DNA of 53,578 nt from a virus (lineage: Duplodnaviria > Heunggongvirae > Uroviricota > Caudoviricetes): the IMG/VR virus record IMGVR_UViG_2671181188_000017; one strand, given 5' to 3'. This document shows, one piece after another, positions 1,027 through 52,210 of this stretch. The number at the start of each line of letters is the position of its first letter. Positions within the stretch are counted from its first letter, which is position 1. Under the pieces are notes generated by a model. That model saw only the letters and a list, made by a program, of their open reading frames with translations. It ran no database searches and was not told where the DNA came from. The translations under genes were made by a program, and so were the position numbers.

Positions 1027-1045
1027 TGGTGCGATAATAGGAACC
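1027..1045. repeat. Degenerate copy of the tRNA-Thr 3' end (candidate distal att repeat of the P4-like island)
   Basis: tggtgcgataatagga matches the att core tggtgccgataatagga with one missing base; lies in AT-rich intergenic DNA between the LysR gene and island cargo. A second weaker look-alike is near 1445-1475. Confidence 0.3.
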
Positions 1046-1575
1046 AATAATCGCCACCAACACAATGATTTTAATACATAAATTAAAATAGAAGATTTAA
1101 ACTACACACACCCCTATACACATTGGTGAAGGCGTTCGCTTTCCGCGCATTCTCAAGGCAGAAAAAACTTTTTTTGGGGGAAAACTGTTCATACTACTCA
1201 TTGTGTTTTTTTTCATTAATATTCAAAAAGATATGAAATTAACGATTGATAAGAAGTGAACACTTTACTGTTCACCTTGACTGATTAATAAGTGCATAAA
1301 AACCTAATTTTTGAGCACGGAAGGTATTTGTTCCTTACCCCATTTTTTCTCTTTAGTCCAGTACAACAAAAAATGCGCCCAACAGAAAACTGTTTTGAAT
1401 TTAAATGCAATCGCTTTGTAGTGATTGTAACGTAAGTTGATTTGATGGGTGCGATTTTGTTTAGCGATAATGGTATGTTGTAAAAATCATTTCGTTGCAA
1501 TAAAATTGCATCGCTACATTTTATAGACAATATCAATTAAATTTTAATACTCATTATTAATTTTGAGGCTAACAA

Positions 1576-2532
1576 GTGACTAGTTATTCAAACTTTTCCA
1601 ATCAAATAAAAGAAACCATCAATAATAAATTCGATCATGAAATTCATGATTGGGACATTATAAAAAACTCAATCACAACTTTAATAAATAAAAATATCCA
1701 TGGTGCAGGTAGAAATATCGTTGATTTTATAGATTTAGGTAACTGGGATTTTATTTCAAACTTTTCCTTTGATGACTCTACAAGAAGACTTGAATTAGAG
1801 TGGCACCCCAATGATAAATTCCATATATATATTGAGTCCGTTGTGTTTGTCGAGTTTAATGACACTATATATGCTTTCTTAAAGGGATACTATCACAATC
1901 AGTTATCTCTAAATAGAATATATAATACAAAATGCTCTTCATGTTCATTTGAAAACTCAGGTTCTTATATGGTAGACGTTTATAGAACGGTTAAAAGAGT
2001 AAATGAGACAATCCAGACCCCAAATATAAATTGCTATACTACATGTATTTTAACAAGGCCCGCAAATGGTCATGTTACATCTACAGGCTTCTCACGAAAC
2101 CTCATGGATGCGATAAATATTTCATTAGCAGAGCACAAAATAGCCTCTTTACATAATGAAGTCATGAGTATTGAGGAATATGATCGTGATTCTTTACAAG
2201 AGAAAGGAAATACTGCCAGGAGATATTTAGAATATATTCTCATGCTTGTTAATATTCGTATAATGCATTTAAACAACGTTCAATACCAAGAGCAAATGCT
2301 AGGTAGTTTAGTTTCTGTTATTGAGGCTCTGGACTATGAACCATTAATGAAAAATGATGTTGAAATTACAAAGGACATCCTTAATGCTTGCAGCCACCAC
2401 GGGGGGGTTAGAATTGAAAAGAAAGATGTAATTTTTTCTTTGGAAGTTATTGAAAACTTAATTAAAGCCATAAAGAAAACCGACATAAATAAATTACAAC
2501 TCGATGGGATGTTTAAATCAATTCAAAAATAA
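1576..2532 (+). CDS. Hypothetical protein, AT-rich cargo gene at the alpha-distal end of the P4-like island
   Basis: 318-aa ORF, strongly N/K/I-rich and AT-rich; convergent with the primase gene; no motif I can recognise. Confidence 0.5.
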   Translation: MTSYSNFSNQIKETINNKFDHEIHDWDIIKNSITTLINKNIHGAGRNIVDFIDLGNWDFISNFSFDDSTRRLELEWHPNDKFHIYIESVVFVEFNDTIYAFLKGYYHNQLSLNRIYNTKCSSCSFENSGSYMVDVYRTVKRVNETIQTPNINCYTTCILTRPANGHVTSTGFSRNLMDAINISLAEHKIASLHNEVMSIEEYDRDSLQEKGNTARRYLEYILMLVNIRIMHLNNVQYQEQMLGSLVSVIEALDYEPLMKNDVEITKDILNACSHHGGVRIEKKDVIFSLEVIENLIKAIKKTDINKLQLDGMFKSIQK

Positions 2533-2636
2533 ACATCATCTAACAATGAATTAGATGCATTTTCCGCTGACGCCTTAGCATATAACTTTTAAATTTTATC
2601 GATATATATTTTGAGATAATTTCCTGTAGCGGATTT

Positions 2637-2657
2637 AAGACCGGCACAGCCGGTCTT
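2637..2657. terminator. Hairpin (9-bp stem aagaccggc/gccggtctt, 3-nt loop) between convergent genes
   Basis: Perfect inverted repeat read directly in the sequence between the 1576..2532 ORF and the primase stop at 2665. Confidence 0.45.
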
Positions 2658-2664
2658 AGGTCAG

Positions 2665-4998
2665 TTATTTCGCTGCAAACTCATCGCATTTTGGCAACCA
2701 GTCAGCATTGCTTTCCTCTCTTAGGGCCAGATTAGTCTGCATTCCTTGATTGGTCCGTCGTTTCTCATACTGCAGCCCATATTCCTTGAGCATTAACGGT
2801 AGCCCCTTGCCAAACATGGTCAGACTGAGCGTATTTTTATAGCCGTTAGCCTCCATGTAGACCAGATAGGCATGGTAGAGGTAAGTTCGAGGCTGACGTG
2901 GAACAATATTAGCGTTCCCCATAAACATGCCCGTGGTGTCAGGTAGGACCTCAAGGTAGCCGCAAAAATCAAAAGCTGAATCAGCATCACGTTTGATGGT
3001 GAGCGCTTCATCGGAGTTCTGCTGTGACTGAAGCAATGTCCTGGCACTCATTGGGTCGCTGAAACGCTGCATAAGCTGGCGAACAATCACCGCTAGCTCA
3101 CTGGCAATTTTCTCTTTGAGCTGGGTATCGCGTTCCTCCGGGGCTATCTGGTCGGGGAAATGCAGGATCACCCTTCGGCGTGAAACTCCACCACTACGAT
3201 CAGTGAAGCGCATCGGATTATTGTTCACAGCCAGGATGACCGCCGGGATGTGGGTTGAATAGGCGTTCTGATATTTGGGATCAACGGATACCGCATCGCC
3301 GCCAGTGATGGCTTTTAGTCCGGCCCCGTCACCGCTCCACTTTTCCTGGTCGGGAAGTCGAATCAGTGAAAAACCTATTAACGCAGCTCGTTCTCTTGGC
3401 GACTCAAGCATTTCAATGGTTGCCGAGGTCGCGTTATCTTCACCCGCCAGCATGGTTGCTATTTCAGCAAGAATACTCTTTCCACTTCCGCCAGGGCCAG
3501 TGACCTCCAGAAACAGCTGCCAGTCATAACGGTTAGCCAGCACCATAAACAATGCAGCCAGAATAATGTCCCGTTTTTCAGGATTAAAACCTGCGGCACG
3601 ATCCAGCCAGCGCCAGAATGCCGGGGCATGGGTTTCCAGTGACTCACCGTCAACGGGCTGCGTGTAATCCACCTCGCACAGCGTACGTAACCAGTGCTTC
3701 TTATCGTGCGGGCTGAACAATCCTGTCCGGGTATCGAGCACACCGTTGCGAAATCCGATAAGTTGCCGCGCCGGATTCTGCTGTTGCGGAACGATCAGTT
3801 TGAGGGTTTCCACGAGAGACGCAATTTTCGCGGATGAAAAAGGTGCGTCGAGGCGCTGAAACAGCGCAGCGACATCACGGGCAAAATCGGCGTAATAGAT
3901 AACTTTCCAGGCCCCCGCCTCATAGCGTGAAAGGAGCTGCCCGTTCGGGTCTACTGCCAGTGAATTTTTATAGTGATCCACTACCCTCTGCGCTTTTTCG
4001 CTGACGCTCAGCGCGGTAAATTCAGCTTCGCTCATTGTGTCGAAGGGGCTGGCAACAGCTGGTTTTATTACTTCATGAATTGCATGCCGGGTGGCTTCTT
4101 CGCCGTTTTGCGTGAATGCATCGTTCCAGTCACCAAACACAGGCGGGAGCGCCATTGTGCAATTGCAGGCCCCGGTAACAGCTGCGCCCCTTGTTTGCCC
4201 CGCACCGTTGAGATCGCGGTCAGCAGCAATAATTATCTGGTGCGTTGGGTACTCACTGCAGGCAATGCTCGCCAGGGAAAGGAAATTGACGGACGAAAAG
4301 GCCACCATGACAGCATCGCCAGTCAGATAGTTGATAGTAAGTGCGGTGGCATATCCTTCCGCTATCCAGAGCCGTTTGGCTGCTTTGGCAGTACCTTCAA
4401 CCAGGTAAAAGGCATTCTTAACCTGACCGCCTTTAAGGAAGCATTTGCCCCCATTAGCGTTGATTAACTGCAGATTTACCAGCTCTCCATCTGCATACAA
4501 TGGAACGACAAGATCTCCCGCGCGAAATGCCACACCACCGACTTTATGCATAGCGGTTAATTCCCGGCAAGGCAGTGCAGGAAACCCTTTACTCGTCAGA
4601 TAGGCATTGCCAGTGGTCTGGCGGGACTTATCAAACAAACGGGCAGCCAGCACTGCTGCAGCTTTTCTCCCGTCCTCTTTTTCAGGAGAACCAGATTCAA
4701 GCATTCCCTGAGATACTGGCAGCAGGTTTCCGATAATGCCGTTTATTCTGTCTGCCGCTTCACTAATGCCTACATCCAGTACTTTACTTACAAGCGCCAG
4801 GCCATCACCTGCCCCGCACTGGTTACAGAACCACGTTCCCCGCCCTTCCTGGTCATCAAATCGAAAGCGGTCTTTCCCGGCACAGACCGGGCAGGGCTGG
4901 TGCCGATTTTTCAGTACATTTACGCCCAGCGCAGGTAAAATTCTTGACCAGTGACCCCGAGCTGCTTTCTCAGCCTGGCTAACTTTCATTCCTGACAT
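2665..4998 (-). CDS. P4 alpha-like primase/helicase (replication protein)
   Basis: 796-aa ORF (track 2665..5055; likely start at MSGMKVSQ); N-terminal zinc-binding CPVCAGKDRFRFDD..WFCNQCG typical of phage/plasmid primases, and C-terminal P-loop GPGGSGKS. Confidence 0.85.
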   Translation of the reverse strand: MSGMKVSQAEKAARGHWSRILPALGVNVLKNRHQPCPVCAGKDRFRFDDQEGRGTWFCNQCGAGDGLALVSKVLDVGISEAADRINGIIGNLLPVSQGMLESGSPEKEDGRKAAAVLAARLFDKSRQTTGNAYLTSKGFPALPCRELTAMHKVGGVAFRAGDLVVPLYADGELVNLQLINANGGKCFLKGGQVKNAFYLVEGTAKAAKRLWIAEGYATALTINYLTGDAVMVAFSSVNFLSLASIACSEYPTHQIIIAADRDLNGAGQTRGAAVTGACNCTMALPPVFGDWNDAFTQNGEEATRHAIHEVIKPAVASPFDTMSEAEFTALSVSEKAQRVVDHYKNSLAVDPNGQLLSRYEAGAWKVIYYADFARDVAALFQRLDAPFSSAKIASLVETLKLIVPQQQNPARQLIGFRNGVLDTRTGLFSPHDKKHWLRTLCEVDYTQPVDGESLETHAPAFWRWLDRAAGFNPEKRDIILAALFMVLANRYDWQLFLEVTGPGGSGKSILAEIATMLAGEDNATSATIEMLESPRERAALIGFSLIRLPDQEKWSGDGAGLKAITGGDAVSVDPKYQNAYSTHIPAVILAVNNNPMRFTDRSGGVSRRRVILHFPDQIAPEERDTQLKEKIASELAVIVRQLMQRFSDPMSARTLLQSQQNSDEALTIKRDADSAFDFCGYLEVLPDTTGMFMGNANIVPRQPRTYLYHAYLVYMEANGYKNTLSLTMFGKGLPLMLKEYGLQYEKRRTNQGMQTNLALREESNADWLPKCDEFAAK

Positions 4999-5011
4999 TG
5001 TGCGGCCCTCC

Positions 5012-5335
5012 TTAGTGCAGCGCTGGTTTGTTGAGGTGACGGGAACAAAGTTCATCCATGACCGTCATTCCGAGCAGTGAGAGAACCGGACAGGCTTTAA
5101 GCGGCCCCGACTCCATCAGATCCGAAAGCAACGCGCAGGCAATTTCCAGCCCTCTTTGCTGCCCATGCTGGCGCAGATAGAACCCTTCCAGCTCGCGGGC
5201 TATGGCATCTTCAAGTTCAGCGAGCGTCAGGCCGGAATAACGTTCCTGATGATTGCTTAGAGCCAGCCAGGCACAGGCAACGGCACGGCGATACAGAGCG
5301 GCACGAAGTGCCAGAAGAGATTCACAGCATATCAT
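5012..5335 (-). CDS. Hypothetical P4-like early-region protein
   Basis: 107-aa ORF in the operon upstream of the primase; start/stop overlap with neighbours. Confidence 0.4.
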
Positions 5336-5556
5336 CAGGCCACCTCCGCATTCATCAGGTCGTCATGGCAGCGTTGCACCACTCCATCCAGTTGCTCTGT
5401 CATCAGATAAATGAGGGAAACCAGTTGTTCGCATTGGGCACCTGCTGGCTTTTCATAACAGTCCTGCAGGGCTGCCATGCCAGTTACATACTCACCCACA
5501 TTGCGTAAATGTTTCAGCCTTACAACATCGTCGTAGGAAATCTCAAACTGGTTCAT
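5335..5556 (-). CDS. Hypothetical P4-like early-region protein
   Basis: 73-aa ORF, 4-nt overlap with the upstream ORF and stop/start overlap with the downstream ORF. Confidence 0.4.
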
Positions 5557-6106
5557 AGCGTCACCTCCCCGGCAGGCAGCCGTGCAGAAAGGGAGAGTAC
5601 ATAATCTCGGACTAGCAAACGGCGCGCGGAACGCTCATCGCAGGAGACAGTGCGAAGCATACAGATGCGGGGGTGAGTGTCAGCACGGCGGATTGCGGCA
5701 AACACAAAGACATATTGCGGGTGTGACGGGGTGAGGATTGTAGCCATGATGGCAGCCTCCAATAAGTAGCGGTTATTGCTACCACCGGAAACGCCAATTT
5801 CACTGGTGGCAGCCCGAACGGGGTTGGCGTAACCGGCCTTATTGGAAACCGGCCAGCCCGAAGGCTGCCCCGCCCGGACTACCATTATCTCGATAGAACC
5901 ATGGTGTAAGCATAAACACCACAGCCCTGAAAATGGTTGTGCCTGAGCTACGACGTAAAAAAAGACGCAAGGGGCGTCAATTGTCGCCAATAAGTTATAC
6001 GGAACGCCAATTCCGGCTGCCGATTTTGCGACAGCGGAAAAACTATACCTGGAAATGACGACAGTAAGCAAGCCAGAATAAAGGTATTTAATGTATGCAG
6101 GTATCA

Positions 6107-6367
6107 TCATGCATCACATCCCCGCCCACGGGCGCTGATGCGGTCCGCCATCCATGCGCTGACCTCAGACTGTGCCCAGGCGACATTTTTACCGCCAAGC
6201 GGGATCTGCTTCGGAAACGCATCGCGGCTGATCAGGTCGTAAACGGTCGAACGGGACAACCCGCATAAGTGCATCACCTCAGGCAGGCGTAAAAATCGCT
6301 CATGATGGTTCGATACAGGAAATAATGGCGCAGCAGGAGCTGGCGCAGACACAGAAATATTACGCAT
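6107..6367 (-). CDS. AlpA-family phage regulatory protein (Vis/excisionase-like HTH)
   Basis: ..[49 protein letters not shown].. matches the AlpA-type HTH pattern. Confidence 0.75.
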
Positions 6368-6919
6368 TTATCTACCCTCTTTAATTTCCACAACAGTCCG
6401 GATGAATTTATCCGGGTTCAGGTAGTTCCTTATTATGTGTATATAAACCACCTGCGCACGCATTTTTTATTTAGCGTCACATATTGATTTTATGGAATTT
6501 AAAGCCCGATTAAACCATATAAAATGACATAATAAATACCATGCCTGCGGACTATAAATACAGGAGCATTAATAGGAACTACCATTCACCCAGGGTTTAC
6601 TATCCTATGGGTCATTGCACCTGATAGTGCTAACCCCACCGCCAATACAGCAAGGCTGTACAACTTCTACACGAGGCCTTGCATTGCAGGCCCCAATTTC
6701 CGGGCATATTTTTGAATCGCATCCAACTTATAAACATTGGGCCTGCATAAAAACCTTGATATTAAATAACATCACCTTAAATCGTAAAATATATCCGAAT
6801 GAATCCATAAAGAACCGGACAGATCTAGTTTTATAAAAATCAGTATGAAATGCAACACCATGGCCAGAGGCGAAAATGTTATTCCCCGGCAAAAACATGC
6901 AGTCTATTTATGTGCCTGT

Positions 6920-7134
6920 TGAATACTCCTGAATAAGGGTGAATAGTGGTGAGGAGCAAAAAACAAATAGCTACGAGGAATAAAAAAACCACCCATTATG
7001 AAAAAATACCATAAATAATTTTATTCCCATGTGAACAGTTATGAACAGTCGATGAATACTGCCATGCCAACCCTTCACCTTATAACCTTCTGTATTACCT
7101 ATTTTTTTTACCTAAGTGAATAGTAGTGAATAGT
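6920..7134. promoter_or_regulatory. Three clusters of phased TGAA(T/C)A direct repeats in the divergent control region of the P4-like island
   Basis: tgaatact/tgaataag/tgaatagt at about 6920-6947, tgaacagt/tgaacagt/tgaatact at 7032-7060, gtgaatagt x2 at 7116-7134; roughly 10-bp spacing within clusters; upstream of the 7301 operon. Confidence 0.4.
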
Positions 7135-7300
7135 TAAGGTAAGTCTGAAACAGCCTTAGTTAAACGAGGCCTTTTCTGGCTAGCCAAAAGAGGTCCGGGG
7201 CGGTTCAGTCTTTGTCTTGTCGCTCGCACAATGGCGTTCAATGGCAGCTTTGTATGCATCACAGCACAATTGACACCACGACAAACCACTAGGTGCTGAC

Positions 7301-8053
7301 ATGACAATCCCAGAACAGAACAATAACCCGATCGTTGAAATTTCTATCCCTGTTTCGACGCAACAGGCGCTTGAGAAAGTGAATGCCACCAAATCTGCAT
7401 GGCTTGAAGCACGTCGTCAGCAAAAAGCGGCAGCGGATAATATTGCGACAATCCGCCAGCGCCGCGCTGAAATGGAAGCCACGACGAACGCCCTGAATGA
7501 GGAGTGGCGCACGCTATTTCGTGAAAGTCAGGGCGTAGTCTCAAAGGAAATGAAAAAACTGCGCACGGAAATTGCGCTGGGACGAGAAACGCTTGAGGAT
7601 TTTGATGAGCTGCTGGCGGCTCAGGAAAGCGAAAATGCACTTTTGCCGCAGGAGGCTGCGGAATTAGCCGGAAAGTATATCCACGCGCACGACACCCTTG
7701 TGGGTATTCGCGCAAAACAAATCTGGGAAGATTTTATGCAGTCGCATGGAAAAGCACTAATCCAGACACTAAGCCTGCTCAAATCAACAATGGGCAGGGA
7801 AGCCAGCGCAGTTGTCGGTGTGGTGCATTCAGTTAATGACCCGGACACACTGCTGAAAGATTTTATTCATAAACATATCACCAGACCGGCTCTGACTAAC
7901 GATGCGATGCCCGAACAGGACCCCGTGTTTAAACTGGCGGGAGTTGCCCCGGATTATGCGGCCCGTCTGGATTTCAGTAATAAACTCTCTCCAGCAGCTA
8001 TGCATAAAATGAAGGTTCGTCAGGAACGTGCTGAGAAGGAGAAAGCAGTATGA
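7301..8053 (+). CDS. P4 late-operon protein (Sid-like candidate by position and size)
   Basis: 250-aa coiled-coil-rich protein, first gene of the operon preceding the Psu-like and Ogr-like genes; assignment is positional. Confidence 0.35.
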   Translation: MTIPEQNNNPIVEISIPVSTQQALEKVNATKSAWLEARRQQKAAADNIATIRQRRAEMEATTNALNEEWRTLFRESQGVVSKEMKKLRTEIALGRETLEDFDELLAAQESENALLPQEAAELAGKYIHAHDTLVGIRAKQIWEDFMQSHGKALIQTLSLLKSTMGREASAVVGVVHSVNDPDTLLKDFIHKHITRPALTNDAMPEQDPVFKLAGVAPDYAARLDFSNKLSPAAMHKMKVRQERAEKEKAV

Positions 8054-8601
8054 TGGCCCGAGTCACTCCAGACCAAGCGCTTATCAGTTTTAGAAATGCC
8101 CGTATTCTGTGGGCTGGACATAGTGAGAGCCGAAAAGCCGTTGAACAACAGATAGAATCACTCCTCACTGCCATGGAAAAACCAGCAGATTATGCTCGAC
8201 AGCTCGAATTACAGCGGGAACATCTGGATGTGCTGAAATGGCAAATTAACTGTGCTGCGCGCGAATGCATTTACTCGCAGCATCAACTGATGGAGGCCTG
8301 CACAGAAGACGCTCTCAGCAATTTTATGCAGGCGAATGGAGCAGCCCTGACATCTGCACTGGCTCCGTTCCTGAAGGGGCGCGGAGGGGTTGACGTTGCG
8401 TCCCGTATATTACGCAATGCTCTGGTTCGCCAGCTGGCAATAACACCGCCTGAAATTGCCGGGGATTATCGTATGATTCTGGATGAATCCGGTGTGATGC
8501 CTGACCCCATGATGGTTCGTGATTGCCAGAGCTCTTACACCCCTGCACAACAACTGCGCTTTCAGCAACGTCTGGATTACATTAACGGCATGCAGGAGTA
8601 A
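8050..8601 (+). CDS. Psu-like (polarity suppression / capsid decoration) protein candidate
   Basis: 183 aa, size and position as in P4; segments such as LDVLKWQINCAA and ANGAALTSALAP resemble Psu as I recall it; 4-nt overlap with the upstream gene. Confidence 0.45.
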   Translation: MMARVTPDQALISFRNARILWAGHSESRKAVEQQIESLLTAMEKPADYARQLELQREHLDVLKWQINCAARECIYSQHQLMEACTEDALSNFMQANGAALTSALAPFLKGRGGVDVASRILRNALVRQLAITPPEIAGDYRMILDESGVMPDPMMVRDCQSSYTPAQQLRFQQRLDYINGMQE

Positions 8602-8606
8602 TATTA

Positions 8607-8879
8607 ATGGCACTTAAATGTCCCGAATGCGGTACGACGGCACACGCCAGAACCTCCGCCTATGAAGCACCATCGGTTAAACGCTCATGGTATCAGTGCC
8701 AGAATCTTGAATGTTCCTACACATTTACCGCACTGGAAAGTGTGGATACGATAATCATGAAGCCCCGGCGCAATGAACAGGAATCAGAGAAAGCACAAAT
8801 GCCGGAAAAACAACAGCAAACTCTCAATCGCTATGGCTCCGCGTCAAAGCTGTCAAGCCGTCAGCAAATTCCTGTCTGA
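8607..8879 (+). CDS. Ogr/Delta-family zinc-finger late transcription activator
   Basis: CPECG..HARTS..YQCQNLECSYTF: the C-x2-C..C-x4-C Ogr/Delta zinc-finger pattern. Confidence 0.8.
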   Translation: MALKCPECGTTAHARTSAYEAPSVKRSWYQCQNLECSYTFTALESVDTIIMKPRRNEQESEKAQMPEKQQQTLNRYGSASKLSSRQQIPV

Positions 8880-8897
8880 TTAGCAAAAAAAGCCCAC

Positions 8898-8925
8898 GTA
8901 ATCCCGGTCCAGTACTGGGATTTTT
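8898..8925 (+). terminator. Putative rho-independent terminator after the Ogr-like gene
   Basis: GC-rich palindrome (cccggtccagtactggga) followed by a T-run. Confidence 0.4.
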
Positions 8926-9232
8926 TACGCCTTTTCCCTGGCTGGCCTGAGAGCGCATGAGTGCATGTCTATAGCGCATGAAAACGCATGATTCTCATGC
9001 ACCATTTTTGACGCGAAAGCCCTTGTGTGGTGGCTTCTGAGACGATTTGCGGAATGCATGAAAACCAGTCTGTTAAGCGAAGCGAGCAGGCGTGGGGGGC
9101 TGCGCGCGCTAAGGGGTTAGATTATAAAATATCAAACGCCGGTGAGATCCATTATTGTGGAACCACCCGAAGGAAGTGTAGAGGCGAAAGTACCCAAAAT
9201 AATTTTGCAAATTATTTAGAAATGAACTGAGC

Positions 9233-9262
9233 GCTCGAAACGAAATATAATTTCGAGCACCC
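9233..9262. terminator. Hairpin (gctcgaaa...tttcgagc) downstream of the hotspot operon
   Basis: 8-bp inverted repeat between the convergent Ogr-like operon and the minus-strand hotspot operon. Confidence 0.4.
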
Positions 9263-9288
9263 CAATTAGCAGTTATATTTTTAATGTA

Positions 9289-9855
9289 TTAAACAGGATA
9301 AAAACCAGAGCTTCCATTCTTATTTAAGTTATGGATTTTATTTGCATCATTAATTTTTATTTGGAACGTCGGACCTTTATTCTCAAGAATTACAATCTGG
9401 AAATTATAGTCCCTTTTGATTAATGCGTGATAAAATGAATCACTGAGACTGACGCTATTAACATCCGATAGAGAACCCCCTCTATCTTTATCAAAGTGCG
9501 TCACTAATGGACTATCAAGCACAACAAATCCAATGAATGGATTCCCTTTTCTTGATAAAAATTCCGCAAAGCAAATGGTAAATATAGCATGCATTACTGC
9601 ACGGGTACCTTTACCAAACATTCCTCGGCGTTTCCCATTGATATTAAAGTCATATGTATCTTCGTCAAATCGCACTTTGTTATCTTTAGAATTTTCAAAA
9701 TTTATATCATTCAAAAAGTCTTGCATCGCTATTTCTATATCATACAAATCAGCTACTGTTAAGGAGTCAAAGTCCTCGGCGGAGTATTTAAGTTCGTCAA
9801 CATCATCTTCTTTATCTTGTAATGAAGATAGAATGCTATGTTTTGTGTGATCCAT
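9289..9855 (-). CDS. Hotspot ORF F: ABC/SMC-type ATPase C-terminal lobe (Walker B-like GFVVLDSP)
   Basis: 188 aa; hydrophobic stretch ending in D (FIGFVVLDSP); start ATG overlaps the ORF E stop as TAATG; AT-rich. Confidence 0.55.
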   Translation of the reverse strand: MDHTKHSILSSLQDKEDDVDELKYSAEDFDSLTVADLYDIEIAMQDFLNDINFENSKDNKVRFDEDTYDFNINGKRRGMFGKGTRAVMHAIFTICFAEFLSRKGNPFIGFVVLDSPLVTHFDKDRGGSLSDVNSVSLSDSFYHALIKRDYNFQIVILENKGPTFQIKINDANKIHNLNKNGSSGFYPV

Positions 9856-10445
9856 TAAAAGATTGTCTTTATATTCATAAAGTGATTCAAGAGATGAATG
9901 TATTGTTTTATATTTTTATCTTCTAACGTCTTAAAATCACTTTTTTCTGATTGATAAATTTCATTAACATCATTTTTTCTTAACATAATTAATTCATGTT
10001 CGCGAACATTAGATCCGATTGATTCAATTAATCCTTTCAGCTGGCTTTTGATTTTCAATTTTTCTGCATTACACGACAAAAAACAATCATCATATGATAT
10101 TTCATTTTCTTTTTTTTGCGGTGTATTACAGAACTCACAATAAATATCTGCAAAATTATTTAAATAGAAATTCGCCTGTGATACAACATCTATTCTTTGT
10201 AGATCTATAAAGTATTGGTCTTTAAGAAGACTAAATCTTTCAATGAGTAATGATAAGTATTTTTCCCTGTCACTGATTGAATATAATTCATCACTTAACT
10301 CTTTTAATAATTGCTTCTTATCATCAAGTGCATCAACAATACCTTTCAATATATCTTTCGATGATTCAATATCTTGCTCTACTTTCTCAAGTTCTCTTGA
10401 AACAATGACTTGATCATATTCAGGATAAATTAATTGCGCTTTCAA
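9855..10445 (-). CDS. Hotspot ORF E: coiled-coil segment with CxxC (zinc-hook-like) motif; probably continuous with ORF D
   Basis: 196 aa, heptad-rich, contains CEFC and CFLSC; has no ATG (track start is TTG); in the same frame as ORF D, separated only by one TAA and 10 sense codons. Confidence 0.4.
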   Translation of the reverse strand: MKAQLIYPEYDQVIVSRELEKVEQDIESSKDILKGIVDALDDKKQLLKELSDELYSISDREKYLSLLIERFSLLKDQYFIDLQRIDVVSQANFYLNNFADIYCEFCNTPQKKENEISYDDCFLSCNAEKLKIKSQLKGLIESIGSNVREHELIMLRKNDVNEIYQSEKSDFKTLEDKNIKQYIHLLNHFMNIKTIF

Positions 10446-10475
10446 TTCCTCATAAATATTTGCAATTTGATTTTT

Positions 10476-32317: not shown

Positions 32318-32327
32318 GATGTTTCCT

Positions 32328-34149: not shown

Positions 34150-34296
34150 GCGTCCCCCTTCTGGCCATAGCCAGTGCGCCCACCAGCAGTAAACCGCCGG
34201 ACAGCATCAGAGCCGGAGCCATACCAAACTGCAGGTAAAACCCGCACGTAAGCAGGCCAAAACCAGCCAGCCCGATAACATCAGCAATTAGTGATT

Positions 34297-36030: not shown

Positions 36031-36530
36031 GATTCGATAATTTTCAGAAACGGGTTAGTGGCTTTCTTCTGCCCCGCCAGGCCAATCAGACGCTGGCGGC
36101 TGCTGGGGTCGAGTCCGAGCATTGCCCCCGTACTGCTCATCTCGGACTCCTGTTCTTTTTTGGCGGTCAGCTCCGGATTTTTGACCATGCCGCCCATTGC
36201 ACCGGTGATGGTGTTGCCCTGTCTGGCAATATTTTTCACGGCACGTCGCCAGAACTCATAGGCCACGCACCACCGCTCAAGCACCGCGAGGTCAGTCACG
36301 CACAGCAGGCCCTGACCGCAGAGTTCTTTGGTTGTCAGTTGCCACATGATCGTGGCGAGAGGGAGATCTTCTTCAGCGAACCACTCCGGTGGCTCAACAC
36401 CTTTGATGGGCGTAAAAACAGGTTCATCTTTGTTCAGGGCTCGCTTGCCGGGGTTTCCGGCCAGCGCCTTGCGCGCCGTTGGCTTGGGGCGACGCCCGGA
36501 ACGCCCCGCCGTTCCAGCCATATGCGGCAC
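36027..36530 (-). CDS. Terminase small subunit (P27-type)
   Basis: 167 aa, basic N-terminus; overlaps the large-subunit start. Confidence 0.7.
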
Positions 36531-36646
36531 TCCTGGTTAAATTTCATTTTTCGCGGGTATAAAAAAACGATGGGGCGGGCAGTCCGGAAGACGTCAGGTC
36601 ACAGGGATTTGACCCGCCCCTCCCCTCTGGCAGTGGGAACTGGTTC

Positions 36647-36997
36647 TTACTTCAGCCGTTCACGGGCCGTCTTCGCCTTATGACACGGCCAGCACAGGCT
36701 CTGCAGATTGCTGTCGGCATCAGTGCCGCCATGCGCTTTAGGGATGATGTGGTCAACGGTTTTCGCCTCGCGCACCACACCGGCACGCAAACACAACTGA
36801 CACAGGCCTTTGTCACGCTTTAGTACACGCCCCCGGATAACATCCCATTTCGAACCATAACCGCGCTGGTGTCGGGACTGGCCTGGCTTGTATTGCTTCC
36901 AGCCCTCGCTTTTGTGGCTTTCGCAATAACCTGACGGGTCAGTCGTGGTATGGCGGCAGCCGCGAACTCGGCAGGCTTTTGGGGTTCGTGGTGGCAT
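36647..36997 (-). CDS. HNH endonuclease (terminase-associated)
   Basis: Track ORF 36647..37096, likely start MPPRTPKA; Cys pairs and DHIIP..GG..NLQSLCWPCH HNH motif. Confidence 0.8.
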   Translation of the reverse strand: MPPRTPKACRVRGCRHTTTDPSGYCESHKSEGWKQYKPGQSRHQRGYGSKWDVIRGRVLKRDKGLCQLCLRAGVVREAKTVDHIIPKAHGGTDADSNLQSLCWPCHKAKTARERLK

Positions 36998-37522
36998 ATG
37001 TACTCCAATGAAGAAGCTACCGACATAGCCTCCTCCATTCGTCGTGAAACTATTTTCATCTACCCAGTAATGAATTCTTTGAAGAGTTGTAATCAATACA
37101 ACTCGCTAATGGAGAGGCTTGTCTCACACGTGAGACAAGCTTCCTGTTTGATTTACTGGACACTATAGAAGGACAGAATGCCTTCCTCACTCGAATCACA
37201 TCAATTAAGGAGGTTCAACATGTTTCATTCCACAAGTCATCAGGCTGTAATTATGGCAGCATCAGTTTGTGCCACAGACCTTTTCCGCTTCACTTTGAGC
37301 CTGATTCATTTCTACCTGACCGGCTCGCCTCTATCTTTTTAATCCCCGCTTTATCCAAATTGCATTGCCAGAATGCCGACAACAGACTGACATTCAAATC
37401 CTGACTACCTCCAATAGTCTGACCGTACACCTATATAGTTTTAATTTTCATCAATCCATTTAACTATCGTTTAATTGTTGTCACATAGGATTCTGCCGTT
37501 TTTAACAATGCAGGATAATAAG

Positions 37523-37816
37523 ATGAAAAAAATGTTATTTTCTGCCGCTCTGGCAATGCTTATTACAGGATGTGCTCAACAGACGTTTACTGTTGGAAAC
37601 AAACCGACAGCAGTAACACCAAAGGAAACCATCACCCATCATTTCTTCGTTTCGGGAATTGGACAGGAGAAAACTGTTGATGCAGCCAAAATTTGTGGCG
37701 GCGCAGAAAATGTGGTTAAAACAGAAACCCAGCAAACATTCGTAAATGGATTGCTCGGTTTTATTACTTTAGGCATTTATACTCCGCTGGAAGCGCGGGT
37801 GTATTGCTCACAATAA
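37523..37816 (+). CDS. bor: Bor lipoprotein (lambda Bor-like)
   Basis: MKKMLFSAALAMLITGCAQQTFTV.. with lipobox LITGC; matches lambda Bor as recalled; track ORF 37475..37816. Confidence 0.85.
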   Translation: MKKMLFSAALAMLITGCAQQTFTVGNKPTAVTPKETITHHFFVSGIGQEKTVDAAKICGGAENVVKTETQQTFVNGLLGFITLGIYTPLEARVYCSQ

Positions 37817-40960: not shown

Positions 40961-41713
40961 TCATCTCGTCACTTTCCTCAATTGTGTCTCAGCATACGCT
41001 TCTTCCTGCCAGCACTTTGTAACCAGTTTATCAATGACATCTGCATATCCTTTGTACCACTGATAATCCGTCAGGTCTGGTACCAGCTTCTGGACATGAA
41101 GCCGCGCCAGTGTGGTTGGTAAACGGCTAAACCGGTTTCCATTGCAACGCCCACAAACCTTATAAACAGGCGTGCCATGAAGCCTGGTTCTTTTTTCATC
41201 CAGGACAATACCTTTACCCTTACACCCTCTGCACGCTGTGCTGACTTCTCCCTTACCATGACAATGCTGACACAGTTCCTTCACCCACTCTTCCTTGATA
41301 ACAGATTCCCCGCTTCTGGAGTGTTTCACCACCTCGCGCAATACATCATGAAATCCAGTACCAGCACAATGCTCACAGCGAGCCTTACTTGCCGCAGACC
41401 TGGAATAATCAGCAAAGGCAAAATTCACAAGGTAAGGAATGATCTGTAGCCGGGTTTCTTCACTCAATTTGTTCAATGTCGGGTTATCCAGTGCCATCGC
41501 GTAATTGAGCAGACCTTCAATCGCAAACTGAGGATCCTGAACACCAACTTTTGCCAGGAATAAGGCAAACCCAAGCGGTGCTTTCGACTGCACCATCCCC
41601 TGCGCAGCCATTACATCCGTAATTGTTAAACCACCAGAGCCTGTCGCCGGTGCGTCATCGCTCAATTTTGGAGATTTTGGGGAGTAATATTTCGGTAAGG
41701 CTTCAAAGTTCAT
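40961..41713 (-). CDS. Late antiterminator Q-like protein
   Basis: 250 aa with Cys-rich zinc cluster (CEHCAGTG, CQHCHGKG, CRGCKGKG, CGRCNG); located upstream of the lysis genes. Confidence 0.65.
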   Translation of the reverse strand: MNFEALPKYYSPKSPKLSDDAPATGSGGLTITDVMAAQGMVQSKAPLGFALFLAKVGVQDPQFAIEGLLNYAMALDNPTLNKLSEETRLQIIPYLVNFAFADYSRSAASKARCEHCAGTGFHDVLREVVKHSRSGESVIKEEWVKELCQHCHGKGEVSTACRGCKGKGIVLDEKRTRLHGTPVYKVCGRCNGNRFSRLPTTLARLHVQKLVPDLTDYQWYKGYADVIDKLVTKCWQEEAYAETQLRKVTR

Positions 41714-44948: not shown

Positions 44949-45409
44949 TCTTCACCCGATACAGCGCGCTTGCTGCTTTTCCGTAAGCACCGCTCACGAC
45001 GCGCCAGAAAATTGTTTCGTTCTGGCTGGGAGTGGCTTTCACGGAATGCCGCCATCCACACCGTTGCAGCACGACGGTATAAGCCCCTGGACTCCAGTTC
45101 TTCAGCCTGGCGGGTCAGGCACAAAATCACCCGGGGATCGTTAGTGCCGACATAGAAATTGCGCACAGGTCTGGTTTCACGAACTGGTTGTGGTTCCGGC
45201 TCCTGCGCTCTCTCAGTCAGGCGCGGGAAATGTCTGCGTGTATCCCCTTCACAACGGTGAGCCACACGCCCACTCTGACGTAACTTGCTTGCAGACTGCA
45301 GAACGCGCTGCCGTGAGTAACCTGCAAAAGCATCCGCAATGTCTCCGGAAGTACAGCCCGGATGGGCTTCAATGAATTTCTGAACGTCATTCAAAAGACT
45401 CATGCTCAC
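44915..45409 (-). CDS. Hypothetical replication-module protein
   Basis: 164-aa ORF downstream of the O-like gene; no recognisable motif. Confidence 0.35.
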   Translation of the reverse strand: MSMSLLNDVQKFIEAHPGCTSGDIADAFAGYSRQRVLQSASKLRQSGRVAHRCEGDTRRHFPRLTERAQEPEPQPVRETRPVRNFYVGTNDPRVILCLTRQAEELESRGLYRRAATVWMAAFRESHSQPERNNFLARRERCLRKSSKRAVSGEEWYLSGNYVGA

Positions 45410-46347
45410 CCCCTGAATCCTGCCGGGATCTGGCTGTAGTCCACGTTGTCGTAACTGGCTTTGAAGTACGGGTCCTCGCGTTTTTCGGTGTACGTGCTGA
45501 CGGACGGCGATAAGCGCAGGGAAAGCTCATCCCATTTTTCCCGCAGCTTCGACGGGCTGAGCACGTTACGGCACCAGAACGGATCGCGACTGACGCGGCT
45601 GTACATCTCGCAGATTTGTTTATGAGTACGACCATCCTGCACACACATCAGGCGAATTTCGTTTGCCCAGGCTGTCCAGTTCGGTTCTTTGGGACGAACC
45701 ACCTCGCCGTCACATTCGGCGGCATGCTCGTACAGGGCGATGATTTTTTTCCAGAGCCACTGTGCACAGGTCAAATCATCCTGCGTCCCCCACTGGCGCT
45801 TTTTAGGGCTGAATACAACCGCATCAGGATGGCGAGTTAAAAAATCCTGTTCATCCGTCTGCGTGTCCGGTTGCGAAGCGTCCGGACGAGAAGGTTTTTT
45901 ATCTGACGGATCATGTTTTGATTTTACTGACGGATCCCCGCCAGATTCTGACGGGTGAAAACCCGCTTTTTTGCCAGATTTCGACGCATCAAATTTTGAC
46001 GGGTCAGATTTTGATGCGTCAGATTTTGACGGGTCAGAATCTGACAGTTGAGAAAATGCCGCTGCCTGAAGCTTCGCAACGTTAAGCTGATAAACATTCG
46101 ACGCATTGCGGTTACCCTGGCGACGCGCCTTACGCGTTAACCAGCCTTCTGCTTCCAGCCGTGCGATAGCCGTTCTGACGGTGCTCATCCCCGCGCCAAT
46201 CTGGCGGGCAATGGTTTCAATTGATGGCCAGCACACACCTTCGTCATTACTGAAATCAGCCAGGCGGGCCATAATTGCCACGCTGGATAACTTCATGCCT
46301 GACGCAGCGCAACCATCCCATACATAGCCGGTTAATTTAGTGCTCAT
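45406..46347 (-). CDS. Replication initiator (lambda O-like) with internal iterons
   Basis: N-terminal winged-helix-like region; repetitive SDSDPSKSDASKSDPSKFDASKSG segment encoded by DNA iterons. Confidence 0.7.
   Translation of the reverse strand: MSTKLTGYVWDGCAASGMKLSSVAIMARLADFSNDEGVCWPSIETIARQIGAGMSTVRTAIARLEAEGWLTRKARRQGNRNASNVYQLNVAKLQAAAFSQLSDSDPSKSDASKSDPSKFDASKSGKKAGFHPSESGGDPSVKSKHDPSDKKPSRPDASQPDTQTDEQDFLTRHPDAVVFSPKKRQWGTQDDLTCAQWLWKKIIALYEHAAECDGEVVRPKEPNWTAWANEIRLMCVQDGRTHKQICEMYSRVSRDPFWCRNVLSPSKLREKWDELSLRLSPSVSTYTEKREDPYFKASYDNVDYSQIPAGFRG
45900..46046. repeat. Iteron array (about 7-8 copies of agatt(t/c)tgacgggtcaga-like 15-18 bp repeats), candidate replication origin
   Basis: Direct repeats visible in sequence inside the O-like gene, as in lambdoid ori. 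Confidence 0.6.
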
Positions 46348-47592: not shown

Positions 47593-48285
47593 ATGAACAT
47601 AGGAAACCGAGTCAGACAACTTCGCCAAGCGAAGAACATGAAAATCGCCGATCTCGCTGAAGCGATAGGAGTAGATGCGGCGAACATCTCGCGCTTAGAA
47701 ACGGGTAAGCAAAAACAATTTACCGAACAAACACTGAGTAATATTGCCAAGAGCTTAGGTGTTGATATTGCTGATCTCTTTACCTCTGCCCACAAAAGTA
47801 ATACTGTATATAAAAACAGTAATAATGAGGATGTTGCGCAGGTGAAGGATGTGTTCCGTATTGAAATGCTGGATATCAGTGCCAGTGCGGGAAATGGCCT
47901 TATCCAGGGCGGTGATGTCATTGATGTGATTCATGCCATCGAATACAGAACTGATAATGCTGTATCAATGTTCGGCGGACGACCAGCCAATCACATCAAA
48001 GTTATCAACGTTCGTGGGGACAGTATGTGTCCAACCATTGAGCCAGGAGATCTCATCTTCGTTGATGTCAGCATCAATCAGTTTGATGGTGATGGTATAT
48101 ATGTCTTTGGTTTTGATGACAAAATATACGTTAAAAGACTTCAAATGATTCCTGACAAACTGCTGGTGATTTCTGATAACCAGATTTACCGTGAATGGGG
48201 AATTACTAGCGAAAACGAACACCGATTCATGGTCTTTGGAAAGGTCTTAATCAGTCAGTCGCAAACCCTTAAGAGACATAATTAA
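47593..48285 (+). CDS. CI-type prophage repressor (HTH plus S24 LexA-like peptidase domain)
   Basis: N-terminal HTH (RQAKNMKIADLAEAIGVDAANISRLETG); C-terminal ..GDSMCPTIEPGDLIFVD.. with a downstream Lys (..YVKRL..), the S24 self-cleavage pattern. Confidence 0.9.
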   Translation: MNIGNRVRQLRQAKNMKIADLAEAIGVDAANISRLETGKQKQFTEQTLSNIAKSLGVDIADLFTSAHKSNTVYKNSNNEDVAQVKDVFRIEMLDISASAGNGLIQGGDVIDVIHAIEYRTDNAVSMFGGRPANHIKVINVRGDSMCPTIEPGDLIFVDVSINQFDGDGIYVFGFDDKIYVKRLQMIPDKLLVISDNQIYREWGITSENEHRFMVFGKVLISQSQTLKRHN

Positions 48286-48305: not shown

Positions 48306-48327
48306 GCCACCGAAAGGTGGCTTTTTA
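48306..48327 (+). terminator. Rho-independent terminator after cI
   Basis: gccacc-gaaa-ggtggc hairpin followed by ttttt. Confidence 0.6.
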
Positions 48328-48562: not shown

Positions 48563-48859
48563 ATGTTAAAGCAGGTGTATGAAATGAAAGTCCAGATTTT
48601 AAACAATAACTGTGAAGTCGTTTGGTCATACGACATAGCCGCCCCTGTAGATCAGAGCGGCGATAGCTGGACCAATGGGAAACATCAGATTATGGCTGGA
48701 GTTGTGTTCTCTTTACGCCGTGCTTTAGAACAGGCTGAAGTCTTTCCATCAGACCCTGAATGGAAATGGCCTTTTTCTATTTGTCCAAATTCGGAGAGTA
48801 CATTTCAGAAAATTGGTCAGAAAGTCGCACTCGAAGAGCATCAGCCAACTGTTTCCTGA
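48563..48859 (+). CDS. Hypothetical protein
   Basis: 98-aa ORF in the cI-int operon direction; overlaps a competing minus-strand ORF (48777..49022). Confidence 0.3.
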   Translation: MLKQVYEMKVQILNNNCEVVWSYDIAAPVDQSGDSWTNGKHQIMAGVVFSLRRALEQAEVFPSDPEWKWPFSICPNSESTFQKIGQKVALEEHQPTVS

Positions 48860-50072: not shown

Positions 50073-50425
50073 ATGTTTTCGAAATGGAAGGGTTTCTTCG
50101 TGGGAGATGTGTACCGCGAGATCTGAAAGTGAATGAAACAGATGCTGAATACCTGGTGCGTAAATTCGATGCGCTTGAAGCTAAATGTGCAGCACAGGAA
50201 AACAAAGTAATACCAGTGTCAACTGAACTGCCACCAGCAAATGAAAGTGTTTTGTTATTCGATGCTAACGGAGAAGGCTGGCTAATTGGCTGGCGTTCTC
50301 TCTGGTACACCTGGGGACAAAAAGAAACCGGAGAATGGCAGTGGACATTTCAGGTCGGGGACCTTGAAAACGTCAATATCACTCACTGGGCAGTAATGCC
50401 AAAAGCACCGGAGGCTGGAGCATAA
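50063..50425 (+). CDS. Hypothetical early protein (DUF551-like)
   Basis: 120-aa ORF with start/stop overlaps on both sides. Confidence 0.4.
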   Translation: MRMNVFEMEGFLRGRCVPRDLKVNETDAEYLVRKFDALEAKCAAQENKVIPVSTELPPANESVLLFDANGEGWLIGWRSLWYTWGQKETGEWQWTFQVGDLENVNITHWAVMPKAPEAGA

Positions 50426-50730
50426 TGACCACTTTTACCGACAAAGAACTGATTAAAGAAATTAAAGAGCGTATCAGCAGCCTTGACGTGCGAGACGATA
50501 TTGAGCGCCGTGCTTATGAAATCGCACTCCTATCTCTGGAAGTAGAACCAGATGAACGCGAAGCTTATGAATTATTCATGGAAAAGCGTTTCGGTGACTT
50601 AGTAGATCGTCGGAGAGCAAAAAACGGCGATAACGAATACATGGCATGGGATATGACTCTCGGTTGGATCGTCTGGCAGCAACGAGCAGGTATCCATTTT
50701 TCAACAATGTCACAACAAGAGGTGAAATAA
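50425..50730 (+). CDS. Hypothetical early protein
   Basis: 101-aa ORF between the DUF551-like and xis-like genes. Confidence 0.4.
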   Translation: MTTFTDKELIKEIKERISSLDVRDDIERRAYEIALLSLEVEPDEREAYELFMEKRFGDLVDRRRAKNGDNEYMAWDMTLGWIVWQQRAGIHFSTMSQQEVK

Positions 50731-51080
50731 TGGAGCCATACAGCCTCACACTCGATGAGGCCTGTCATTTTCTCAAGATATCCAGACCGACTGCCATTAA
50801 CTGGATACGCACAGGGCGTCTTCAGGCAACACGCAAAGATCCCACTAAGAATAAATCTCCTTACCTCACAACACGACAAGCCTGCATTGCGGCTCTTCAG
50901 TCTCCGCTGCATACTGTCCAGGTGAGCGCGGGTGATGGCATAACAGAGGAAAGAAAATGTCACTCTTCCGCAGAGGTGAAATATGGTACGCCAGTTTCAC
51001 ATTGCCGAACGGTAAAAGATTTAAACAGTCTCTTGGAACAAAGGACAAAAGGCAGGCGACAGAACTCCATGACAAGCTAA
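50730..51080 (+). CDS. Excisionase-like HTH protein (Xis candidate)
   Basis: Likely start [37 protein letters not shown] (HTH), directly upstream of and overlapping int; track ORF 50646..51080. Confidence 0.5.
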
Positions 51081-52120
51081 AGGCTGAAGCATGGCGGGTC
51101 AGCAAACTTGGTGAAATACCTGATATAACGTTCGAGGAAGCGTGTGTCAGGTGGCTTGAAGAGAAAGCACATAAAAAATCGCTGGACGATGACAAAAGCC
51201 GGATCGGATTCTGGCTTCAACATTTCGCAGGAATGCAACTAAGAGACATTACTGAATCAAAAATTTATTCAGCAATGCAGAAAATGACGAACCGGCGTCA
51301 TGAGGAAAACTGGAAACTCAGGGCAGAAGCATGCAGAAAAAAAGGGAAACCTGTTCCAGAATACACGCCAAAACCAGCGTCCGTTGCAACGAAGGCTACG
51401 CATCTTTCATTTATAAAGGCCCTACTAAGAGCCGCAGAGCGTGAATGGAAAATGCTGGATAAGGCACCAATTATTAAAGTGCCTCAACCAAAGAATAAAC
51501 GGATCCGCTGGCTGGAGCCCCATGAAGCACAAAGGCTGATTGATGAATGTCCGGAGCCATTAAAGTCTGTTGTTGAATTTGCACTGGCAACAGGCTTAAG
51601 ACGCTCGAACATCATCAACCTTGAATGGCAACAAATAGATATGCAGCGCCGGGTGGCATGGATAAACCCGGAAGAGAGTAAATCAAACCGCGCAATTGGC
51701 GTTGCGCTGAATGATACTGCATGTCGCGTATTGAAAAAACAAATCGGGAATCATCACCGTTGGGTATTTGTGTACAAGGAAAGCTGTACCAAACCAGACG
51801 GAACGAAAGCGCCAACAGTAAGGAAGATGCGGTATGACGCAAACACAGCCTGGAAAGCGGCGCTGAGACGGGCTGGTATTGATGATTTCAGATTTCACGA
51901 CTTGAGACACACCTGGGCAAGTTGGCTGGTTCAAGCCGGAGTCCCGTTGTCAGTGTTACAGGAAATGGGAGGCTGGGAGTCTATCGAAATGGTTCGTCGA
52001 TATGCTCACCTTGCACCTAATCACCTTACCGAACACGCACGGCAAATAGACTCGATCCTGAACCCATCGGTCCCAAATTTGTCCCAGTCAAAAAATAAGG
52101 AAGGTACTAATGATGTGTAA
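50957..52120 (+). CDS. Prophage tyrosine integrase
   Basis: 387 aa; C-terminal ..[33 protein letters not shown] catalytic region; ends 15 nt from the tRNA. Confidence 0.9.
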
Positions 52121-52134
52121 CTTATTGATTTTAA

Positions 52135-52210
52135 TGGTGCCGATAATAGGAGTCGAACCTACGACCTTCGCATTACGAATGCGCTGCTCTACCAACTGAG
52201 CTATATCGGC
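52135..52210 (-). tRNA. thrW: tRNA-Thr (CGU anticodon), attachment target
   Basis: 76 nt whose reverse complement reads GCCGATATAGCTCAGTTGGTAGAGCAGCGCATTCGTAATGCGAAGGTCGTAGGTTCGACTCCTATTATCGGCACCA. Confidence 0.95.

Follow-up and report, generated by a model that had tools for sequence, protein, structure and literature searches.

P4-like satellites and the cargo hotspots that they carry have been catalogued (PMC8628076), and the attP and cos sites of the SfV-type phages have been described (PMC3636060). A tandem of two prophages, Sp1 and Sp2, at the tRNA gene thrW is already known from Escherichia coli O157:H7 through the annotation of strain Sakai and through two papers (PMC2669165; PMC8190617), the second of which noted a 'compound prophage' at this site. 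Here we analyse a stretch of 53,578 nt that IMG/VR holds as the virus record IMGVR_UViG_2671181188_000017 (the window, by which we mean the whole stretch). With a probability of roughly 0.87, we conclude that two independent integrative elements, a P4-like satellite (the island) and an SfV/SfI-like prophage, stand here in tandem, with thrW as the attB of both; that this is the Sp1/Sp2 compound prophage already described, from a lineage in which the SfV/SfI-like prophage next to thrW is still full length; and that the two are neighbours by target and not by partnership.

The window is 100% identical, over its full length and in single pieces, to E. coli O157:H7 strain 7784 (NZ_CP018247.1, 301236-354813), and its positions 1-14100 are 100% identical to Sakai, EDL933 and many further O157:H7 genomes. 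The Sakai record places "prophage Sp2, P4-like phage" at 310628-323514, which is window 1043-13929, and between Sp2 and thrW it holds just a 10.6-kb remnant, "prophage Sp1, lambda-like", where the window has an element of 38,175 bp. The identity to Sakai Sp2 covers the whole island and both flanks; limits, gene content and a pseudogenised ATPase agree, and only the neighbour differs, a remnant there and full length here. We take Sp2 to be the same element as CP-933I of EDL933, and Sp1 presumably is CP-933H of that strain. Among 5,426 complete genomes, at least 80% of the island query is present in 305 and at least 80% of the structural half of the prophage in only 68. Strains 7784, FRIK944 and Z1835 are examples of the full-length arrangement. 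The array is built as follows (features to which no strand applies are given without one).

1-900, plus strand: LysR regulator resembling yagP, in the chromosomal flank that borders the array distally (PGAP and Sakai annotation); contiguous with thrW in genomes with an empty site
1026-1042: outer att copy of the island, ATGGTGC-GATAATAGGA, the 18-nt core of the thrW 3'-end minus 1 nt
1043-13911: P4-like satellite of 12,869 bp, identical to Sakai 'prophage Sp2' (100% identity to Sakai and EDL933; Pfam, Rfam, tblastn against P4)
13912-13958: middle att, an exact 47-nt copy of the 3' part of thrW; with its 18-nt core (13912-13929) it serves the island as the att nearer to thrW, and with its 46-nt core it serves the prophage as the distal att
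13959-52133: SfV/SfI-like lambdoid myovirus prophage of 38,175 bp, full-length counterpart of Sakai Sp1 (nucleotide identity, PGAP, Pfam)
52135-52210, minus strand: thrW, tRNA-Thr(CGT), attB of both elements; the prophage has its proximal att in the 3' 46 nt of the gene (ARAGORN, Rfam)
52325-53578, minus strand: proA, chromosomal flank (annotation)

The tRNA-Thr(CGT) gene is the sole tRNA gene found in the window by ARAGORN, and Rfam concurs. A repeat search recovered an exact 47-nt direct repeat (13912-13958 and 52134-52180), of which the copy on the thrW side runs from the base before the anticodon loop through the CCA end and includes one flanking base. An earlier reading of the sequence (the original prediction) had pointed to a 46-bp repeat of the tRNA 3'-end at 13913-13958 and 52135-52180; this repeat is exact, forms part of the 47-nt repeat, and equals the published attP core of SfI, SfII, SfV and SfX as an exact string match (PMC3636060). 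The degenerate copy that had been proposed at about 1027-1045 as a possible outer end is likewise real. It lies at 1026-1042 and corresponds to an 18-nt core, made up of the final 17 nt of the tRNA and one flanking base, from which one C is missing; by our estimate, about 1e-4 chance matches of this kind are expected in a window of this size. The same outer core with its 1-nt deletion is found in O55:H7 DEC5A, and its position as the distal end of the satellite is backed by the joint between flank and thrW in 818 genomes with an empty site. As the limits of Sp2 in the Sakai record convert to window 1043-13929, the Sakai annotators had set its ends at the 18-nt core. The gene abutting the middle repeat encodes, as had been predicted, a P4-type integrase, judged by its domains and by 38% identity to P4 Int.

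The integrases of the island and the prophage share 21% identity, in the catalytic domain only, and their cores are nested, the 18 nt from the T-loop to the 3'-end lying inside the 46 nt from the anticodon loop to the 3'-end. It is through this nesting that the 47-nt middle copy acts as an end for both elements. The P4-type integrase would recombine within the 18-nt core between the T-loop and the 3'-end of the tRNA, with a crossover probably near the T-loop, and the SfV-type integrase would recombine within the 46-nt core from the anticodon loop, with a crossover probably in that loop; T-loop and anticodon loop are the known preferences of these integrase subfamilies. Just past the tRNA 3'-end, the phage-derived sequence at 52117-52133 (gtaacttattgatttta) imperfectly matches the empty-site flank at 1009-1025 (gtaactacttgatttaa), so that the homology of the SfV-type attP to the host reaches beyond the 46-nt core.

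The att sites were mapped with three chimeric junction queries, representing the empty site, the island alone and the prophage alone. The yagP flank, ending at 1025 and fused to thrW starting at 52134, occurs as one uninterrupted piece at 98-99% identity, and this empty-site query is covered to at least 80% in the 818 E. coli genomes mentioned above, exemplified by strain 88-3493, where the annotated order is LysR regulator, tRNA-Thr and proA. The integrase side of the island joined to the 5' part of thrW was found in one piece (99.8-100% identity) in O55:H7 DEC5A, SF O157 493/89, O157:H7 2571, F6321 and others, and in DEC5A the island is complete, with yagP on one side and an intact thrW on the other. 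Finally, strain PapM-32-1 has the yagP flank, the att core and the left arm of the prophage in one piece; here the same SfV-like prophage is the sole occupant of thrW and carries the same insertion sequence (IS) remnant, AraC regulator and GIY-YIG cargo as the window. At base level, the common sequence "...cttgatttaa" leads in the empty site into an intact 18-nt core with the tRNA, in PapM-32-1 into the core and prophage DNA, and in both the window and DEC5A into the core minus one C and island DNA. The left element is thus bounded by att copies when mapped against the uninterrupted locus, and because empty, island-only and prophage-only states all exist, these are two independent elements. 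Tandem occupancy of thrW, with the middle att common to a P4-like satellite and a separate, complete-looking prophage, is in this way borne out by the junctions. As the most likely history we suggest that the satellite would have come first, as in O55:H7, that an SfV-like phage would next have entered the regenerated thrW and displaced the satellite by 38 kb, and that decay would afterwards have left only the 10.6-kb Sp1 of this phage in Sakai and EDL933.

The core gene set of P4-like satellites comprises int, psu, delta, sid, alpA, epsilon/ash and alpha (PMC8628076). All tblastn matches of P4 proteins fall at 2680-13753, inside the island, and none in the prophage. The island carries the following features.

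1103-1122, plus strand: pair of TAYACACA octamers 12 nt apart in the distal arm, candidate arm-type sites of the integrase; a partner pair lies at 13781-13800 and an inverted copy at 13750
1184-1274: three TGAACA(G/C)T octamers beside att that may form a crr-like region for replication in cis, which would parallel the attP-crr-alpha order of P4
1576-2532, plus strand: low-GC cargo open reading frame (ORF) of 318 aa, annotated as hypothetical, between the crr-like repeats and alpha
2665-4998, minus strand: alpha primase-helicase (73% identity to P4 alpha, 771 aa; Zn_Ribbon_Prim, Toprim_3, D5_N, Pox_D5)
5012-5335, minus strand: DUF5375 protein, homologue of P4 ORF106 (cnr) (Pfam E 1.7e-49; 71% identity)
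5553-6110, minus strand: immunity region, an Ash/Icd-like ORF over a C4/CI-type RNA (5802-5889) and isrK (5958-6035) (Rfam, Pfam Phage_ASH, NCBIfam Icd-like; 68% identity to the P4 cI region)
6107-6367, minus strand: AlpA/Vis-like regulator and excisionase (Pfam Phage_AlpA E 1.2e-19; 66% identity to P4 ORF88)
6920-7134, plus strand: GGTGAATA-type iterons in a cluster, a candidate ori that precedes sid and has the position of the P4 ori
7301-8053, plus strand: Sid-like protein of 250 aa, a Psu paralogue in the sid position (weak Pfam Psu, E 7e-10; 'capsid size determining protein' in Sakai)
8050-8601, plus strand: Psu polarity-suppression protein (Pfam Psu E 4.8e-42; 31% identity to P4 Psu)
8607-8879, plus strand: Ogr/Delta-like zinc-finger late activator, 90 aa, single domain (Pfam Ogr_Delta E 1e-16; 41% identity to the N-terminal half of P4 delta)
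8880-9116, plus strand: conserved non-coding block ending in GGCGTGGGGGGCTGCGCGC (9089-9107), an unvalidated candidate cos; homology with relatives of about 91% identity ends at 9107-9116
9289-12565, minus strand: cargo hotspot with a decayed Lamassu system in which LmuA is broken into 2 ORFs and LmuB into 3, LmuC being intact (PADLOC profile coordinates tile over the fragments)
12569-13750, minus strand: P4-type tyrosine integrase, reading away from the middle att (Arm-DNA-bind_3, Phage_int_M, Phage_integrase; 38% identity to P4 Int)

The order of these features is that of P4 (NC_001609), namely att, crr-like region, alpha, cnr, immunity RNA, vis, ori, late operon, hotspot, int and att, and P4 likewise has a C4/CI RNA and enters the 3'-end of a tRNA gene via a short core. 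The two differ in the target, which is leuX in P4 and thrW in the island; in the late operon, which reads sid-delta-psu in P4 and sid-psu-delta in the island; and in Delta, which has 166 aa in P4 and a single Ogr-like domain of 90 aa in the island, an architecture resembling Ogr. The hotspot of the island, unlike that of P4, contains the decayed Lamassu system, and the 318-aa ORF beside alpha is extra. Both RNAs of the immunity region exceed their gathering scores in Rfam, C4 with 84 bits against 45 and isrK with 71.9 bits against 50, and Phage_ASH matches the ORF that overlies the CI RNA at E 4.8e-30. The ORF in the sid position is matched by P4 Psu at E 9e-7 and not by P4 Sid (tblastn, 1e-3), and it has no NCBIfam match. 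Epsilon of P4 (NP_042039), and equally P4 ORF151, gop, beta and cII, gave no tblastn match anywhere in the window; an epsilon homologue has been placed on Sp13 and not on Sp2 (PMC2669165).

Several short repeats in the island are also reminiscent of P4. The GGTGAATA iteron is one mismatch from the type-1 ori repeat of P4, GGTGAACA, and these iterons cluster additionally beside the outer att, as crr does in P4. Of the ten TAYACACA copies in the window, five are found no more than about 170 nt from the two att sites of the island, and we infer from their arrangement, which is like that of the arm repeats of the P4 attP, that the pairs are candidate arm-type sites.

The prophage shares about 97% nucleotide identity with the packaging, head and tail genes of SfV, SfI and SfII; for SfV, this match covers 71% of a 24-kb structural query. 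Its tail is Mu-like and contractile, and its head is HK97-type and not P2-like according to Pfam and PGAP, as the original prediction had remarked. Its principal features are these.

14237-14671: partial IS3-family transposase (IS remnant), beside the AraC-family regulator and PD-T4-3
14713-15465: AraC-family regulator, beside PD-T4-3
16230-17054, plus strand: PD-T4-3 (GIY-YIG) anti-phage defence gene, att-proximal cargo (PADLOC E 2.7e-140, 255 of 256 profile positions)
31088-37096, minus strand: packaging and head module with HNH endonuclease, P27-family small terminase subunit (TerS), large terminase subunit (TerL), portal, S78 prohead protease and HK97-type major capsid protein (Pfam, PGAP)
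36572-36581, minus strand: prophage cos TGCCCGCCCC, located between HNH and terS and equal to the 10-nt cohesive end that was determined experimentally for SfI
40961-41713, minus strand: Q-type late antiterminator (Pfam Antiterm, E 8e-53)
47593-48285, plus strand: CI-like repressor with S24 (LexA-like) autocleavage domain (Pfam Peptidase_S24, HTH)
50646-51080: excisionase-like ORF, with an excisionase-family match below the curated cut-off
51002-52120, plus strand: SfV-type tyrosine integrase, intact (Pfam, PGAP); intD of Sakai is a pseudogene

The cos 10-mer TGCCCGCCCC, which SfI and the prophage have in common, occurs exactly once in the window, and the published primers flanking it match in 22 of 22 and 20 of 20 positions (PMC3636060). 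SfV, SfI, SfII and SfIV further share with the prophage the 46-nt attP core, the thrW site and lambdoid early and late control. The Shigella phages carry gtrABC by attP, where the prophage instead has the IS remnant, the AraC-family regulator and PD-T4-3; no gtr genes are annotated in the prophage, and without gtrABC it is not serotype-converting. Sakai Sp1 agrees with the prophage in site, orientation, left-end cargo (AraC regulator, GIY-YIG gene, pin invertase, tail-fibre genes and IS remnant) and int-cI-cro early region. Sp1 has, however, lost the entire block for lysis, packaging, head and tail, and only pseudogenes of int, O and P are left in it, whereas the 38.2-kb prophage of the window has int and the structural module intact.

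When P4 hijacks P2, its epsilon acts on the P2 repressor, Delta and Ogr on P2-type late promoters, Sid and Psu on the gpN shell, and the P2 terminase on a shared 19-nt cos (PMC2669165; PMC8628076). P2, like the prophage, is a contractile-tailed temperate coliphage of similar genome size, but the targets differ throughout. The P2 capsid is made of gpN and gpO, while the prophage has an HK97-type Phage_capsid protein with S78 protease and no gpO scaffold; cos is 19 nt in P2 and 10 nt in the prophage, whose terminase consists of HNH and P27-type TerS; and P2 has Ogr late control and a C repressor outside the SOS response, in contrast to the Q antiterminator and SOS-cleavable S24 CI repressor of the prophage. 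No P2-type capsid, scaffold or terminase was found by Pfam, in which the head and packaging proteins match only Phage_capsid (HK97), Peptidase_S78, Terminase_4, TerL and HNH, and the sole Ogr/Delta homologue in the window lies on the island. A search for a shared cos or for promoter mimicry gave chance-level matches only between island and prophage DNA, and the longest k-mer that the island has in common with the packaging region of the prophage is 12 nt. By analogy with P4, a satellite with P4-type replication, immunity and late modules would need a P2-like helper from elsewhere, and the lambdoid neighbour would run its own lytic cycle through its SOS-cleavable repressor, Q, and HNH, TerS and TerL acting on its own cos.

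The 19-mer cos of P2 and P4 is absent from the whole window at up to 3 mismatches, the best ungapped match being 14 of 19. Local alignment of 8880-9290 with the P4 cos region gave a score of 24, which 9 of 300 shuffles reach (shuffle mean 17.8), and the reverse strand scored 27; the resemblance does not exceed that of shuffled sequence. A candidate cos is the end of the non-coding block of about 240 bp downstream of delta (8880-9116), which is about 90% conserved and occurs in 531 E. coli records at 90-95% identity, in P4-like islands that differ in cargo and integrases. Homology in the block stops directly past GGCGTGGGGGGCTGCGCGC (GGCGTGCGGGGCTGCGC in the relatives), and the left half of this motif (9089-9107) resembles the left half of the P2/186 cos. 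Exact matches to GGCGTGGGGGGCTGCGCGC in IMG/VR are copies of the same island only, and queries of 411 nt and 55 nt against 50,697 phage records returned nothing, or chance matches in actinophages. We also considered the SfI cos as a site in the island and rejected it, as there is one 9/10 match, inside alpha, where by our estimate about 1.4 are expected by chance. Since the outer core has an indel, the cargo is pseudogenised, an epsilon homologue is undetected and no P2-type cos is recognisable, the satellite is probably immobile now.

The elements would be just as independent had they arrived in the reverse order, the SfV-like phage first and the island afterwards, with the displaced 47-nt part of thrW offering its 18-nt core as a secondary attB. 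This order would leave an identical end sequence; P4-type cores are short (18-20 nt), so that the partial copy holds the whole target, and genomes with the prophage alone exist. Yet in O55:H7 DEC5A and SF O157 493/89 the identical island, its outer core lacking the same nucleotide, directly adjoins an intact thrW. Both belong to lineages considered ancestral to typical O157:H7 or early branches relative to it, and the reverse order would need a later precise excision of the prophage in both of them; we consider it unlikely. That the locus is instead a single contiguous ancestral composite of about 51 kb, which merely looks like two elements, is an idea to which we give practically no credence. 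Prophage-prediction pipelines do return one 'compound prophage' (PMC8190617), and IMG/VR has a 53.5-kb 'viral' contig spanning the locus. Such a composite would, however, contain a full att copy in its interior and two integrases from different subfamilies; SfV, SfI and SfII are free phages with the same attP (PMC3636060); and each half occurs alone at thrW with clean junctions, which contradicts a single ancestral element of the kind that the original prediction had named as the outcome that would overturn it.

A closer relation between the two elements was put forward in the original prediction, which found it conceivable that the prophage is a helper of the satellite in cis. The island would then use the adjacent prophage for capsids, tails and packaging, and co-location at thrW would favour co-induction. 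The ingredients are at first sight there: the island has, as predicted and as confirmed by Pfam, Ogr/Delta-like and Psu proteins, it also encodes the Sid-like one, the neighbour has a complete-looking morphogenesis set, the size ratio of 12.9 kb to 38.2 kb is about one third, as for P4 to P2, and, with cos only a candidate, the helper range of this island type may extend beyond P2-like phages. We nevertheless find the pairing very unlikely. The neighbour offers a Q antiterminator, an S24 CI, an HNH/P27 terminase and a 10-nt cos in place of the P2 targets; the island has neither this cos nor any sequence in common with the prophage beyond chance; it lives without the prophage in O55:H7 and SF O157 lineages, and most O157:H7 genomes keep it beside a headless 10.6-kb remnant only. 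The literature, moreover, gives P4-like satellites P2-like helpers (PMC2669165; PMC8628076), reports that excision, circularisation, replication and packaging of Sp1 and Sp2 were not seen in Sakai (Asadulghani et al., PMC2669165), and discusses the P2-like Sp13 as the (defective) helper of Sp2 (PMC2669165). A route that requires no P2-like helper would be packaging before excision, of the lambda docL type or resembling lateral transduction, which could carry the satellite and its defence cargo in cis. The geometry allows it, as packaging runs from cos at 36572 toward terS and the head and tail genes and arrives at the middle att after 22.6 kb and at the outer att after 35.5 kb, so that the island lies wholly within the first 'headful' (the phage genome being 38.2 kb) downstream of the neighbour's cos. 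Cos phages normally require a second cos to complete packaging, and we hold the scenario to be highly improbable; if it were true, adjacency at thrW would be a transfer route and not a coincidence. Some considerations do weigh against the reading that we favour, two independent elements that share a target, with the satellite arriving first. The order of integration is beyond proof from sequence, as a satellite entering the displaced 47-nt copy would yield the same result, and precise loss of the prophage from O55:H7-like strains may also fit; the published negative excision data concern Sakai only, where Sp1 is a remnant; and the cos of the island is only a candidate, the helper specificity being argued from P4 biology.

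Both elements carry cargo. The region between int and psu, with cos included, is a hotspot described for P4-like satellites (PMC8628076). In the island it is occupied by the decayed Lamassu system, which PGAP names 'ABC-three component system' and whose ATPase is a pseudogene in the Sakai annotation. In DEC5A (9979-13254 of its stretch) the breaks lie elsewhere, with LmuB in 2 pieces and an internal stop in LmuC, and this difference from the window indicates independent decay in sister lineages. The 318-aa ORF at 1576-2532 has a GC content of about 31-38%, is absent from P4 and found no match in Pfam, PADLOC or NCBIfam; its position may mark a second cargo site in the satellite. A related P4-like island in E. 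coli EC974 (946-11740 of its stretch) has int, Icd-like, DUF5375, TOPRIM/DUF927 primase, sid, delta and DUF4062 cargo genes and is followed on the opposite strand by a lone 'phage portal protein' gene, which may be a remnant of another phage abutting the cos side of that satellite.

In the prophage, a Pin-family invertase gene (17115-17669, minus strand) adjoins opposed pairs of tail-fibre and tail-fibre-assembly genes (region 17115-19148). This arrangement suggests an invertible host-range segment, and the tail-fibre genes associated with pin show weak inverted repeats only. A lipoprotein gene annotated by PGAP as iss ('increased serum survival'; 37523-37816, plus strand), for which NCBIfam gave no match, lies between the lysis cassette and the HNH and terminase genes. 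Further along, four tandem 15-nt repeats (CAGATTTYGAYGSRT-like, 45975-46049) lie inside a gene for a 313-aa HTH protein resembling replication initiators (45406-46347, minus strand), and by comparison with lambda, whose ori lies inside the O gene, they are probably the ori iterons of the prophage.

A second IMG/VR record, IMGVR_UViG_2684623171_000017 (53,554 bp), also keeps the locus as one 'viral genome'. A stretch of 11,261 bp from it, chromosomal flank included, is 99.99% identical to window 1-11261, and the record shows how a tandem array can end up as one predicted virus.

The locus illustrates how integrases of different subfamilies with nested cores let one tRNA gene gather several elements, and it shows why prophage predictors fuse such arrays into one "compound prophage". 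It also gives reason for caution, as adjacency alone is no ground for inferring satellite-helper pairs. Beyond correct annotation the significance is small, but a lineage with an intact-looking SfV-like prophage beside Sp2 would be a handy natural system for asking whether neighbouring prophages ever co-mobilise satellites.

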